A stretch of 64,000 bases of DNA from Psilocybe cubensis (GCA_017499595.2 CM038999.1:310001-374000), one strand, 5' to 3'; numbered from the stretch's first letter, positions 51,199 to 57,681 are shown. Program-made: numbers and translations. Notes: generated by a model from the letters alone, not told the origin.

Positions 51199-51558
51199 AT
51201 GTCCCGTTTCTTCTTCACCTTTACCATCGTGGCGTGCTGGCTCTCTCCCCTCATTTTTGGCAAGTTGATAGGCTAAAACTAGGAAGAAAAGCACTAGAGA
51301 CTCATTTTCCTTTAGCCATTCCCGTTGAATACCCAGAGCACATAGTGAACCATATACCTGTGGCCAACGTGGCTTCCTCAACAAGTGCCATTGTACTTCC
51401 AAGCGGCACCCCAATAGGTGGTAAGCAAACATTTAGTCCATTCATTTGGAGGATCGATTCAAATCGACATACACCTAGGTATATGCACCATTGAACACGG
51501 CTGCCCTCCCCCACCGCATACATGTGACAGCTTTGATGCTTGCCCCTCCTTCCCCTAG
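51199..51558 (+). CDS. Small secreted Cys-containing peptide, family member 1 (81 aa, 3 exons)
   Basis: Exons 51199-51259, 51316-51420, 51479-51558 (first intron GC-AG): MSRFFFTFTIVACWLSPLIFAIPVEYPEHIVNHIPVANVASSTSAIVLPSGTPIGGICTIEHGCPPPPHTCDSFDACPSFP; TATAAA ~95 bp upstream. Confidence 0.8.
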
Positions 51559-52203
51559 GAGAAAAAAGAGGCTCTCAAGCTACATCCCACAATTATTCTC
51601 AATTCTTCACCTCTCTAACTCTATCTTGATTTTTGTTGATGTAATCAGTATTGTATCATACATTCGTCACAGTGGCACTCATTTTAATACTTGTATTGAT
51701 ACGTGCAGGCATACTTCGTCAGAGTCACTTGGTTAATCTTTCATCGTTACCTGTTTCTATGGTCACTGCTTTATACCTTACTTGCATCCTATTTTTCGTT
51801 CTCTACTTTCGTATGATAAACGTAACAGTAGTGTGAATCACCCATATGTCCAACACTTAGTATTAAAGGGACGTCGATACTCGTTGGTCATTTAACGAAA
51901 TCCAAGATCTGAAAGGTTTCCAATAAGCAGACTCGAGCGAAAACAGCGTCACACACTGGCCGCCGAAAGCTCGTCGAGAACCTCCATTATCATATTCTCA
52001 TTTACCTGGCGTTGAACTGCTTTTCAGTCCCAAAAGGCATACAGAGAAACGTCCGAGGCATTAGTCTTGTTGGCCTCCTAACAATGTTAAAGATCGATTT
52101 GAGACGTTCGCTTGACGTCGCTGCTCAAGAAAAAGAAAAGAACCACGTACTAAAGAAATCAAAATGATAAAATAAATGAAAGTCGGCACCGTACTCCTCA
52201 GAA

Positions 52204-55200
52204 TTACACCTTCATACTAGCAACATCCCTCAACATCTCCCTCACCCTCGGGCGACTCATCACCTCTACCTTCTTCTGAGTCCGATTCTCACCCGCAAAA
52301 GCCAGAACAGCTTCCCCCCAACGCTCATAGCACTCCCCAACGCGCTCAAGCACATGGTCGATCAAAATCCTTGCCGTCCTCCCATCTCTATGCACACCTT
52401 CACCTCTATCTTGGTCTCTTCCATCAGCGTTGGGGTCAACGTCGACATCTGAAAGGTAGAGCCGAATCCGCGCAACATTACCGCGTAAATCTCGCTGCAC
52501 AGACTCCGCAAAGCGGGTATGCATCCCTCCTAGGTCTTCATCTGGTGTAACTGTGCCCGCCGCCGCGGTTCCTGTCGATGCATTACCCGCCCCAGAGGTG
52601 CTCGAGGATGAACCCGAGGAGGAAGTAGCAATCGACGTCGGCAGTGGCCTCGCACTCGAAGCCACAGTGACATTTTGTTTATCAGTCCATGTATCCAGGA
52701 TCGCACACACGGGACCTGCACAGGCCTCAATCGTGTCTTCGCATGCTTTGCGGAGTGCATGATCGATGTCCTAATTGAAATAAATAACGATGTAGGCTTC
52801 CAACTTCGCAAATGAAAGATGCAAACGAACGCACCAACTTAACACCTCGCATCCCTCCCTCGCCATCCGCACCGCCACCCCTGCTCACCCCCAAGGAGGC
52901 GAACAACCCTTCAGGGAGCAGCGACGTTGTCTTGCTAAGCATGTTGGTCAAGGTTTCTACATACATCACAATATAAATAGTAAATTAAAATCGCAAGGTG
53001 AGTAAATCAGTGAGATTGTAAATGAACGTGCTGATCAGAAACGTACCAGTGACTCCGAAATCCAAAGCTCTCGCACTGCCCAAGCTGGCCATACCTGAGC
53101 CCATCCCCATCCCAGTGGCTGGTGTTCGCACCGCACTACTGTGACTACCCTCCTCCCTCATCCGCACTTCCTCCAAACTCATATACACTTCCTTTAAAAT
53201 GAGGATATGTCTGACAAGGAACAACGCCCCATCCAACTTTCTATTGCTATTAGATGCCCCTGGTGAGGAGGGAGAGGGTGTTGTGGCAGTAGTGGAGGCA
53301 GCGATGAGCTCCGACGCATGGATGAGGGAGAGACGGCAGAACGTCAGAGCTTCTTGTGCGATATCATCAAATATCGCCGGCTAAAATTCATAAAAGTCAC
53401 ATATGAATAAAATGATCAATGGTCAAAGGATCTAATGCGTAAAAAAGAAGACGAACCTTCACGAAATCCCTCAACTGTCCTAACACCCAAACTGTCTTCC
53501 TTAGCGTCGGGTACCACGTCTCCTCATTATTTCTGCCATCTTTGTACTTGAATATCTGGTTCGTACTTTGCTTTTCGCTGAGCTCGGCAGGGTTTTGTTG
53601 GCGGTTGGCTGTGGCTATAAGTTTTGGGAGTGTGTAAGAAACAGGGATTGAAACAGCCAGCCAATGAAACCGCGTATAGATAAATATCCAAGAAACATAG
53701 CGCATATATGCACAAAATAAATATGTGTCACGCATATATAAACCGCAAAACCTCCACGCGACTCAAAAATTGAGAAGAAAAATAAAGTTGGACACTCACA
53801 AACCAAAATCCCAGGCCACCCATCCACATCCTCCTTCCCAGGTACAAAATACCGTATCTCGCTCTGAATCACCGCCTGAGCCTTGAAGAACAACCGCGTC
53901 TGCGCATCCTGCAGAACCATCCTGAGCAAAGTAGCGATGTGCAATCGCTTGGATATGCGTGCGGTGTTAGGCTTGGAGGCGTGCGTGTGCGAAAGGTGAG
54001 AGGGAGTAGGGGAGGGGGGAAGTGTGAGTTCGTCGGACCGTCGACGGCGCCGCCGTTGTGTTGATTGGGAACTACTTTCGTCTTCGCTATCTGAGGAATC
54101 GCCAGAGGAGGATGAATCTCTGGTAGTGGAAGTCGCGCTTGACGCAGAGGCTGGCACGCTTGTGGTGTCGAGCACCATCAACGCCTGCAACACCGTGCAG
54201 ACTTCACACAACACTGTCAAACGCGGCTCGTGCAGAATTCGAGGACGTAGGTCGTCGTACAATAGATCGCACAGAGTTTCCAGATACTGGCTACCCCAAA
54301 TATCAGCACAAAAGCGCATATTATCAGTAGTAGTATAACTCACTAAAGCGCGGTTTCTCCGGTAGAGAAAAATTCCCGATACAGTACCCACTCATCCCCA
54401 CATAAGGCTTTCAAATATCCACATCCCTCCCGCGTCAGCTCCACCAGCTCGCTCCTGCCCGGATCCAAGCCCCGAATTTCCTCCATCACCCGTGGCACAA
54501 GTAACGCTTTGCGAGTCGCCAGATACGCAGTGTGGCACTCCGCAAGCAAAGCGGAGAGCTCGTCGGGGTACGCCTGAGCACGGCGCTCAAGCTCACCAAG
54601 CAATGGTGCGACACGCGTAGATATGGACCGGAAGCGCGTGTAGAGTAGGTGGTGCTGGGCAGTCGGCGACGGATCCTCAGATAGGCGTTTTGATATCTCA
54701 GAGGAGAGCGCGCGCAATGAACCCACGAAGTTCATTTTGATAAGCGTCATTGCGCGCGTCATGCATTGTTGGAAGCGTAGTAGATACACCTCCGCCTCCC
54801 TATAATGTCTCTACCCAAAAATAAGCGCTTGATTTTTGAAAAATTGACAGAAGAAAACGTACATGCGATTTGAGGAAATCGATGCATATGTCGACGCGCT
54901 CAACCATATACAAAAAGTCAGTCTGGAAGATAAGCGACTCGCCCGGATGGTTCAACATCCTTGTCGCGTGTTCTAGCTCCTGGAAATACTCCAAATGCCC
55001 CTGAATATCTTCCACAATCTCTACCAACCGATCCCTTTCCTCCAATAGCCGCTCACATGCGTCCTTCAAACTCCTTCCACCGTCCTCGACACCGCGCCAT
55101 CCCTCCATCATTCGGTCCACCTCCGTGTCTACTTCACTGATGCGATCGAGGAGAAGGTCGCACACCTCCAAGTGCGAGCTCAGGGTGGCAACATGCGCGC

Positions 55201-56147: not shown

Positions 56148-56527
56148 TCAACTGCAAGTGGAGTCATCCTGACGGCGACGAGGGAAGGAACAATCATCTA
56201 TATATCATATATGTTTTAGCATGCCATGATATCACCTTTATACATCTAACATGGAGACACATACTATCTCTTGCCACAATAGCATTGGCTACATCTACAC
56301 CAGAATGAATGAGGTCAGTATGGTGTCCCGGGGGCATGTAGGTAGCTAGCAATTGGGAATGTTGCAGACGTACCAAGCCCTCGATTCTCGACTGCAATTG
56401 GACTCGCTGGAATAGCTGTTAGCGCAAAAGTCTCTCAGGGACATATTCATCAATCGTATGCCATACCAAGTATCAGTGGGGACACCCAGCACGCAATGAT
56501 CATAAATGCCATGTAGAAACGAGCCAT
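56148..56527 (-). CDS. Small secreted Cys-containing peptide, family member 2 (60 aa, 4 exons)
   Basis: Exons 56527-56467, 56415-56374, 56294-56265, 56197-56148, all GT-AG phase-1 introns: MARFYMAFMIIACWVSPLILAIPASPIAVENRGLDVANAIVARDNDCSFPRRRQDDSTCS; TATATAA ~100 bp upstream. Confidence 0.8.
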
Positions 56528-57526
56528 GATGATAACGCTGCCACTGATTTTAGTTGTATCTGTGGTTATGGGAGTAAGACTGGATACTACAGTGGGCAAT
56601 TAGCTTGCGAACTTCCGCGCCTTATATACCATATTCTATACTGACAATAAAGGCATCTCATCCCGAACTTCTACGACATTTTCGGGGATGATGTGATGTG
56701 ATAGGAGGCCTTTGAGCTGATGGAATCCCACTAAAGCGCGTGGAAGCATCCTCAGGAATAGCAAATCTTCTCGGTGAGCCAGTAATGTGGATGAGAGTAT
56801 CACTATCGGTGGCACTACTTGTGTATAATTAGGCCTACTATCGCGTTCGCAGGGAGTTTAAAATTAAAACAAACCATATTATTCTTATTAATAATACGCC
56901 AATGACCTGCATTTTGAATTGTCACTCGTGCGACTCCACTCCTGTATGGAAATGGAAGCTATATGTGAGAATTTTACCTTGATGGCTCGGATTCTGATTA
57001 ATTTCATGAAATTAATTATCCTCACCACTGTGGGGGGAAAGCAGGTCGGGGATAATGCCGGCGCCGTGAGCTATACCGATCTGACACGCTGGTTTTGAAT
57101 TTGTAAAGTCCGGTTGCACTTTCCGAAAATCTTCTAACTCCTACCTCTCTCGAAACGGGATTTTGACAATATGCTATCATGGAATGATCCCTCAATACAG
57201 AGGCTACGCTTTATTGGTATTCATCAATGGCGGGGCGTTGCAGCTCAACTCGGCAGGCCGCAGTAGCGCATTAGAGAAGAGCCAATAGTTGGAAAAGAGG
57301 TCACGCACTGGTTCATAAAGGCTGTGTGGATTTGACCATAGGGAAAGGGAAGGGACCCATCTCACCAAGAGATACATACTTCCCATCTCGGAGGGATGTA
57401 GGATCAAAAATAACTGTGTTTCATTTTTTTGCTGTATATTTTTTACTTATTTTTGAAGATTGATCTCAAGCGCTTCTATTGGCTTTCTCAGAAGCAGTAG
57501 TCCCATGTCGTCTGTATCACCATAGT

Positions 57527-57681
57527 TTATCTCTGCATCCTGAGACGCGATAGGACTCGCTGGAAAGCTGATAAATACCAACATGCATTGACCGCTACAT
57601 GCAGCTCATAGCAAACACACCTAATATCAGTGGGGACACCCAACACGCCAGAATCATAAAGGCCAAGTAGAAACGAGTCAT
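57527..57681 (-). pseudogene. Small secreted peptide family member 3, frameshifted at the start of exon 2 (may extend to ~57240)
   Basis: Exon 1 MTRFYLAFMILACWVSPLIL (61 nt, same intron position); exon 2 CT-TTCCAGCGAGTCC lacks one base relative to member 2 (CTATTCCAGCGAGTCC), giving an early TAA; same TATA context as member 2. Confidence 0.7.

Follow-up and report, generated by a model that had tools for sequence, protein, structure and literature searches.

A conserved, signal-peptide-like first exon defines a family of small genes with unalignable bodies in Psilocybe cubensis

Introduction

Do three tiny genes that resemble one another at their first exon, and differ in the rest of their coding sequence, belong to one family, and what would such a family make? 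The question is raised by positions 51,199 to 57,681 of a 64,000-nucleotide stretch of Psilocybe cubensis DNA (GCA_017499595.2, CM038999.1:310001-374000), the whole of which we call the window. A sequence-only reading of this locus had proposed a hidden family of multi-exon secreted peptides, in which a conserved leader precedes a hypervariable, Cys-bearing core. Here, we follow up this proposal for the three genes concerned, g1 on the plus strand and g2 and g3 on the minus strand, with all positions counted from the first letter of the window. With moderate confidence, we favor the view that they are a lineage-specific, orphan family, found in Psilocybe cubensis or a species very near to it, and encode small secreted pre-peptides.

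Results

A first exon shared by three genes

The three paralogs start with a 61-nt exon whose peptide follows the consensus MxRFYxAFMIxACWVSPLIL, with 12 of the 20 columns invariant across the copies and a protein identity of 60-85% among them. We scanned the six frames of the 64-kb window with five motif patterns and found matches at these three loci only. A hidden Markov model (HMM) of the exon-1 protein likewise gave three matches in the window (expect value, E, of 4e-16 to 7e-15; next best E 1.9), as did an HMM of the exon-1 DNA searched with nhmmer (E 9e-21 to 1e-16; next best 0.75). Three copies in a 64-kb window are far above chance, and the family is real.

The three genes also have their layout in common. 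In each of them, exon 1 stops after the first base of a codon, making the intron that follows phase 1. A TATA box lies 96, 101, and 93 nt upstream of the ATG in g1, g2, and g3, respectively, and an A occupies position -3, a good context for a start codon. The common first exon, the phase-1 intron, and the TATA box about 100 bp upstream that the sequence-only reading had described are all present in the three genes. Their open reading frames (ORFs) span 81 codons in g1 and 57 in each of g2 and g3, the figures for g1 and g3 being those of models.

Transcription and splicing of g2

We drew on five sequencing runs of one organism, from two studies, and compared the contigs of four of them (X1 to X4) with the window. 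The contig sets of X1 and X2 amount to 18-20 Mb and are labeled "RNA?", and those of X3 to X5 to 41-47 Mb. All of the 11 joints listed read CT..AC on the plus strand, corresponding to GT..AG introns on the minus strand. X1 contains 11 of these joints and X2 10, and neither DNA run (X3, X4) has any. Seven fall in the neighboring COG3 gene, three inside the coding sequence (CDS) of g2, and one, seen in X1 only, in the 5' leader of g2. Because the seven COG3 introns are spliced out in both X1 and X2, we consider these runs to be RNA-derived; as they come from one study, they count as a single independent source. We conclude that g2 is transcribed and spliced at its three coding introns (Table 1).

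These joints bear out the C-terminal exons of g2 as they had been drawn from the sequence, with introns 2 and 3 exactly as proposed. At intron 1, both RNA runs use a CCAG acceptor 9 nt downstream of the one that had been proposed, and the g2 product continues A-S-P-I-A. The expectation that the two genes then thought intact would both continue A-I-P is therefore kept for g1, which is predicted to read A-I-P-V-E, and is dropped for g2.

The short spliced g2 mRNA measures approximately 348 nt (from 56586 to ~56033, this 3' end being estimated from bin depth). The conserved ATG is its first AUG and opens the 57-codon ORF. Both internal exons of g2, of 33 and 30 nt, are symmetric (phase 1-1), such that the frame would survive the loss or gain of either one; one isoform appears in the contigs. 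Contig word depth over g2 was 176 in X1 and 73.5 in X2, compared with 15-42 and 41-64 over COG3, in a measure that cannot rank genes. No RNA contig of X1 or X2 lies over g1 or g3, a blank that carries no weight on their expression.

The annotated start of g2

The claim that these genes are absent from annotation fails for g2, which is already held by NCBI and UniRef as "hypothetical protein JR316_0001632 [Psilocybe cubensis]" (82 aa; KAH9484732.1, XP_047752357.1). Given the leader intron found only in X1 and an upstream ATG at 56661, the window encodes this protein letter for letter, and the product of the short spliced form corresponds to its residues 26-82. In the long leader seen in X1 (56587-56818, the end at ~56818 being estimated from bin depth), the ATG at 56661 is the third AUG, after upstream ORFs (uORFs) of 46 and 2 codons. 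The 25-aa N-terminal extension is not conserved in g1 or g3, and the short mRNA cannot encode it. We doubt the start of the 82-aa form because its extension is unconserved, because the leader intron removes the TATA box, and because its ATG is only the third AUG. The NCBI model is probably over-extended, and the conserved M-x-R-F start would be the real one.

Models of g1 and g3

The acceptor that is proven by RNA in g2 has a homolog in g3. When this site is used, g3 has an open 57-codon CDS (57681-57621 joined to 57559-57447) that continues A-S-P-I-A, as in g2. The frameshift for which g3 had been considered broken drops out, because it lies upstream of this acceptor, and the modeled gene is intact. 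Directly downstream of the modeled stop, an 80-codon stop-to-stop frame (57204-57446, minus strand) may hold further g3 exons. The differences listed between the window and the DNA run X4 leave g3 (57447-57681) untouched, with seven in the 240 nt downstream of it and four in the 110 nt upstream; the absence of differences within g3, among those listed, is a weak hint of constraint.

For g1, our model comprises three exons, and the predicted A-I-P-V-E aligns with the A-S-P-I-A of g2 and g3. The DNA run X3 has one extra G behind 51429, inside the second g1 intron. Neither g1 nor g3 has a matching protein in the collections that we searched with the exon-1 signal profile and with the g1 exon-2 frame, and both appear to be unannotated.

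Conservation in short islands

Exon-1 DNA is 85% identical between g2 and g3 and 70-72% identical between g1 and the other two (z 4.1-6.9 relative to shuffled sequences). By the same measure, the 5' leaders compare at the level of shuffles (z 0.6-1.3), the first introns slightly exceed it (z 1.5-2.3), and the 200 nt that follow the start of exon 2 are again at the shuffled level (z -0.3 to 1.3), with the DNA past the first ~25 nt of exon 2 behaving like shuffled sequence. A blastn comparison of g2 with g3 accordingly consists of three islands: the TATA box (16/16), exon 1 (85% over 67 nt), and the intron-1 acceptor with the first codons of exon 2 (22/25, 88%).

Within exon 1, differences at the first, second, and third codon positions number 4/0/5, 6/2/10, and 4/2/11 in the three pairs, the second position taking 0, 2, and 2 out of 9, 18, and 17. 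The ratio of nonsynonymous to synonymous divergence (dN/dS) is 0.15-0.23, and 0.15-0.19 for g1 against the others, with a dS of 0.46 between g2 and g3 and of ~1.3 between g1 and the others; these values are rough, as they rest on ~13 synonymous sites. Exon 1 is constrained as a coding sequence. The bodies, which the sequence-only reading had called unrelated, give no local BLASTP alignment at E<=100 and hence no dN/dS. Together with the exon-1 HMMs, this agrees with its description of a multi-exon family in which the N-terminal exon is the sole conserved coding part.

Because exon 1 is constrained while leaders, introns, and bodies compare at or near the shuffled level, the duplicates are old, and selection has kept exon 1 as coding sequence, plus the TATA box and the acceptor. 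Gene conversion was considered as a cause of the exon-1 similarity and ruled out by the unhomogenized flanks and the frequent synonymous differences. The bodies may either have changed until nothing recognizable is left or have been swapped for other sequence. With only three members to go by, neutral decay, or a replaced 3' part, explains them as well as diversifying selection does.

Predicted products

By inspection, the N-terminus of the products presents Arg3, a hydrophobic core of 17-18 residues (mean Kyte-Doolittle hydropathy of 2.0-2.2 in the three genes), Ser-Pro, Ile at -3, and Ala at -1. Ser-Pro followed by I/L-x-A makes a typical c-region for signal peptidase. We take Ala21 as the putative cleavage site because these features fit the usual rules for this enzyme; the N-terminal hydrophobic exon would then be a cleavable signal for the endoplasmic reticulum (ER), cut after Ala21. 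In each of the three genes, the codon of this residue is put together by splicing at the phase-1 junction.

Cut at this site, g1 would give a mature peptide of 60 aa and g2 and g3 peptides of 36 aa each, all of them acidic (predicted isoelectric point, pI, of 4.8, 4.9, and 4.1, respectively), with predicted masses of approximately 6.2, 3.9, and 4.0 kDa. Mature g1 would contain four Cys (C-x5-C-x6-C-x5-C), mature g2 two (C-x11-C), and the g3 model none, with no common framework. The paired Cys of the last exon that had been described from the sequence are thus recovered in g1 and g2, where they are confined to that exon, and are missing from the modeled body of g3. Dibasic sites comprise an R-R-R inside the C-x11-C loop of g2 and an R-K in g3, with none in g1, and there are no internal repeats. 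The bodies are polar and acidic, and lack a C-terminal HDEL or KDEL.

A single hydrophobic helix was modeled. From the single sequence of the 82-aa JR316_0001632, AlphaFold returned a mean predicted local distance difference test score (pLDDT) of 60, with the hydrophobic stretch in a continuous helix of 25 residues (pLDDT ~76-78), another, weak helix, coil elsewhere, and no globular fold. The ESM Atlas model has a pLDDT of 0.52.

Searches for relatives

We built a profile from the frames, stop to stop, that surround exon 1; run against 5.8 billion proteins, it retrieved JR316_0001632 only: this was the one match among three candidates of near length, and there were no matches among 364 longer candidates. 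The profile of the g1 exon-2 frame had no match in the protein collections (one candidate). Searched with phmmer against 1.84 billion representatives, JR316_0001632 found itself and one bacterial-looking repeat protein, a chance hit that matches the S-F-P-R-R-R stretch only. Pfam held no family at E<=10 for JR316_0001632, g1 exon 2, g1 exon 3, or g3 exon 2, and none of these four queries matched hydrophobins, cerato-platanins, or other named secreted domains. The best neighbor in the ESM Atlas scored 0.77, under the threshold for a lead. Three weak matches among PDB sequences (E 0.31-0.43), to the transmembrane helix of NDUFB8, were taken as chance hydrophobic matches.

At the nucleotide level, Rfam had no match in 50800-58200, and two degenerate exon-1 DNA patterns had none in metagenome contigs. 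We found no described fungal family with this signal in the open-access literature (supplements excluded). No match to an already described family of small secreted proteins emerged from Pfam, the protein collections, or open-access text.

Weighing the secreted pre-peptide reading

A family of small secreted pre-peptides is the reading that we favor, and several points weigh against it. At 17-18 residues, the core exceeds what is usual in a cleaved signal and could anchor the protein in a membrane. No part of a secreted protein is normally less conserved than its signal peptide, and the invariant Cys13-Trp14 and Ser16-Pro17 are not explained by export alone. As modeled, g1 needs a rare GC-AG first intron, and the exon structure of g3, also a model, may include further introns. 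Members are known from DNA, with RNA in addition for g2 only and from one study, and the count of three covers the 64-kb window only. Because export alone leaves the conservation of C-W and S-P in the signal unexplained, two of the alternatives below keep some weight.

Alternative readings

The sequence-only reading went further than secretion, and saw in these genes a diversifying family of processed bioactive peptides. The products would then be toxins, antimicrobials, or hormone-like, their cores would be under diversifying selection, and the leader would direct both secretion and processing. We consider this unlikely. A separate, conserved signal exon joined to unalignable bodies does match the architecture of conotoxins, frog skin peptides, and legume NCR peptides, and Cys are found only in the last exon of g1 and g2; yet no Cys framework is conserved, and the g3 model has no Cys at all. 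The basic R-R-R stretch and the C-x11-C loop of g2 are what such a precursor might show, but R-R-R lies inside that loop, the only other dibasic site is the R-K of g3, and g1 has none. The symmetric mini-exons of g2 would allow in-frame exon gain or loss, and its contig depth is at least that of COG3, with the reservation that contig depth cannot rank genes. Only three members are known, and the unalignable bodies allow no test of selection. The predicted mature peptides are acidic (pI 4.1-4.9), and most membrane-active antimicrobial peptides are not. Furthermore, no processing or tailoring gene was found nearby: a scan of 20 long open frames showed no peptidase, P450, methyltransferase, or transporter gene next to g1-g3, so that there is no sign of a cluster of the type that makes peptides synthesized on ribosomes and then modified post-translationally (RiPPs). 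A general Pfam scan of the same 20 frames turned up no S9 peptidase.

Alternatively, the hydrophobic helix may itself be functional, either in uncleaved single-pass membrane micro-proteins (signal-anchor) whose tails are short and variable or in an 82-aa form of g2 with an internal transmembrane helix. We regard this, too, as doubtful. It would account for a sole conserved part that is a hydrophobic segment of 20-25 residues in which C-W and S-P are invariant, not what one expects of a disposable signal, and it fits the 17-18-residue core; against this, Ser-Pro followed by I/L-x-A resembles a signal-peptidase c-region. For the 82-aa form, AlphaFold models the continuous 25-residue helix, and a long 5' isoform with the upstream ATG exists in X1, but the extension is unconserved in g1 and g3 and beyond the reach of the short mRNA, and its start comes third among the AUGs, behind the two uORFs, if the leader reaches ~56818.

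Somewhat less credible still is that g2 is the sole working gene, with g1 and g3 decaying duplicates whose 3' parts were lost or replaced and whose frames are open by chance. The GC donor required by g1 would be in keeping with decay, as would the short reach of the homology between g3 and g2, which extends only ~25 nt into exon 2. Neither g1 nor g3 is in any protein collection searched or under an X1 or X2 RNA contig, the latter blank not being evidence on expression. In contrast, exon 1 of both genes is coding-constrained at a divergence where leaders compare like shuffles, and g1 and g3 both retain the TATA box, the start context, the donor, the acceptor, and an open frame. The lack of X4 differences within g3, among those listed, adds a weak hint in the same direction. 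Under the secreted pre-peptide reading, g1 and g3 would be functional genes.

That the 61-nt block is kept for a reason at the level of DNA or RNA (a regulatory element or non-coding RNA) is very improbable: conservation does come in short islands that include the non-coding TATA block, but substitutions are codon-like, with few at second positions, the block starts at a well-placed ATG and ends exactly at the RNA-proven donor of g2, and Rfam is silent on the region.

Table 1. Exons, introns, and promoter elements of g1, g2, and g3 (positions in the window)
Feature	Position	Strand	Details
g1 TATA box TATAAA	51103..51108	+	96 nt before ATG
g1 exon 1	51199..51259	+	61 nt = 20 codons + 1 nt, signal-peptide-like; motif scan, HMM
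g1 intron 1	51260..51315	+	56 nt, phase 1, GC..AG, donor TTG/GCAAGT (slash marks the splice site); prediction only
g1 exon 2	51316..51420	+	105 nt, predicted; starts A-I-P-V-E
g1 intron 2	51421..51478	+	58 nt, phase 1, GTAAGC..TAG; predicted
g1 exon 3 with stop	51479..51558	+	All 4 Cys, C-x5-C-x6-C-x5-C; predicted
g2 TATA box TATATAA	56622..56628	-	101 nt before ATG; within 16-nt block identical in g3
g2 optional 5'-leader intron	56587..56645	-	59 nt; X1 only; removes TATA box; used by NCBI 82-aa model
g2 exon 1, coding part	56467..56527	-	61 nt; motif scan, HMM; ATG 56527
g2 intron 1	56407..56466	-	60 nt, phase 1, GTATGG..CCAG; RNA joint in X1 and X2
g2 exon 2	56374..56406	-	33 nt, phase 1-1; product reads on A-S-P-I-A
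g2 intron 2	56295..56373	-	79 nt, phase 1, GTACGT..TAG; RNA joint in X1 and X2
g2 exon 3	56265..56294	-	30 nt, phase 1-1
g2 intron 3	56198..56264	-	67 nt, phase 1, GTATGT..TAG; RNA joint in X1 and X2, not X3 or X4
g2 exon 4	56033..56197	-	Joint 56197/56265; CDS 56197-56148, stop 56150-56148, then 3' untranslated region
g3 TATA box TATATAA	57768..57774	-	93 nt before ATG
g3 exon 1	57621..57681	-	61 nt; motif scan, HMM, blastn
g3 intron 1	57560..57620	-	61 nt, phase 1, GTGTGT..CCAG; predicted
g3 exon 2 with stop	57447..57559	-	37 codons, no Cys; model, acceptor homologous to RNA-proven g2 acceptor

Surroundings of the locus

The genes follow one another in the order g1 (+), COG3 (-), g2 (-), g3 (-). 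COG3 (conserved oligomeric Golgi complex subunit 3) occupies 52143-55875 on the minus strand and matches the Pfam families COG3_N (1.3e-30) and COG3_C (2.1e-23); joints in the RNA contigs of both X1 and X2 confirm seven of its introns. Inside COG3, between 52428 and 54601, the RNA run X2 and the DNA run X4 depart from the window at a common set of single bases (at 52526-52567 and 54468-54601, among others), and X1 and X3 show none of these differences, which looks like two haplotypes or strains of one species.

The Pfam scan of the 20 long open frames gave matches in seven, one of them a sub-threshold NAD-binding match. A KDZ (Kyakuja-Dileera-Zisupton) transposase with a CxC2 domain lies at 45530-47137 (+), ~4 kb upstream of g1 (CxC2 8.7e-38, KDZ 7.9e-33). 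An open frame at 13065-14831 (+) carries an NPHP3_N/NACHT NTPase domain (7.2e-30) typical of fungal NLR-like proteins, and an exon-sized FAD_binding_4 frame at 17923-18522 (-; 2.3e-20) probably belongs to an oxidase gene of berberine-bridge or VAO type.

Discussion

How would such a gene work? We propose that a short mRNA, ~350 nt once spliced in the case of g2, is driven by the TATA box, from which transcription would start. In the predicted transcripts, the first AUG opens an ORF of 57-81 codons. The first 20 residues, encoded by an exon of their own, would act as an ER signal peptide, and signal peptidase would cut after the Ala21 rebuilt across the phase-1 junction, releasing acidic peptides of 60 (g1), 36 (g2), and 36 (g3) residues with 4, 2, and 0 Cys. 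Purifying selection holds the signal exon, as well as the TATA box and the acceptor of the first intron. Defense against competitors and signaling in hyphae or fruiting bodies are the usual proposals for fungal proteins of this kind.

A bolder version, which we advance as an unlikely one, sees a promoter and signal-exon cassette under purifying selection, joined to peptide exons that turn over completely, as a fungal counterpart of the venom, skin, and NCR superfamilies, of which these three genes would be only the part in view. If this is true, the symmetric phase-1 mini-exons would help the turnover, and the genes would encode fast-evolving secreted peptides for defense or signaling that ordinary annotation misses. 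The signal with its invariant C-W and S-P would then do something beyond export, such as serving a special secretory route.

The locus also suggests that mini-exon genes for secreted peptides are under-annotated in mushroom genomes, since two of the three genes found here are missing and the third has a probably wrong start. Searching with a profile of the signal exon can recover such genes.

Comparison with known systems

Basidiomycete lipopeptide pheromone precursors end in a CaaX box and have no signal peptide. The products of g1, g2, and g3 differ from them on both counts, as none has Cys as its fourth-to-last residue and each begins with a hydrophobic segment that resembles a signal.

MSDIN precursors have a hydrophilic leader that is not a secretion signal, a Pro-flanked core of 6-10 aa, a conserved follower, and a dedicated prolyl oligopeptidase (POPB). 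Unlike these, g1-g3 have a hydrophobic 20-mer as their leader and no conserved C-terminal follower. What they share with the MSDIN precursors of Amanita, Galerina, and Lepiota is a minute size, an agaric origin, and a conserved leader joined to a hypervariable core (PMC5159998, PMC6317590, PMC7318481). KEX2-processed repeat proteins (KEPs) and dikaritin-type fungal RiPP precursors, which occur in Agaricomycetes, resemble them in having a signal followed by a short peptide (PMC6339444, PMC7329392, PMC9769878); unlike these, g1-g3 have no repeated cores, no KR/RR arrays, and no tailoring enzyme gene nearby.

The IGY family of Marssonina brunnea is likewise a fungal secreted family recognized by its N-terminal conservation (PMC4367982). 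Its 107 members carry their motif at the N-terminus of the mature protein, whereas in g1-g3 it is the signal itself that is conserved; we found no sequence relation between the two.

In architecture, the three genes resemble MgCRP-I, myticalins, and the anuran and NCR peptides, with a conserved signal on an exon of its own, an unalignable mature part, and Cys, where there are any, in that mature part. The MgCRP-I, NCR, and conotoxin families share a Cys framework, whereas g1-g3 have none in common, and these superfamilies count tens to hundreds of members in animal or plant hosts, against the three seen here in a fungus. The likeness is one of architecture only, as Pfam and phmmer found no sequence relation.

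The nearest parallel is with the orphan small secreted proteins of Agaricomycetes. In these fungi, 190-477 small secreted proteins are predicted per genome, and more than 40% of those that are developmentally regulated are unannotated or species-specific orphans (10.1101/349894). Its operational definition asks for fewer than 300 aa, a signal peptide, and no further membrane segment (10.1101/349894). The three genes (81, 57, and 57 codons) all fall below this length, and their polar bodies agree with the absence of a second membrane segment. Unlike typical members of this class, they lie at its smallest end (57-81 aa), are split into two to four mini-exons, and show paralog similarity confined to the signal exon, with two of the three missed by annotation. 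As in orphans of this class, they combine a length under 300 aa with no known domain and no outside relatives, their first exon would supply the N-terminal signal, and they form a local group of paralogs, as such orphans often do. If the family stays at three, it is one more orphan secreted-protein cluster, ordinary for Agaricomycetes. If it proves large in Psilocybe and its relatives, it would be a rare fungal case of the conserved-signal, hypervariable-peptide design that marks defense and signaling peptides in animals and plants.

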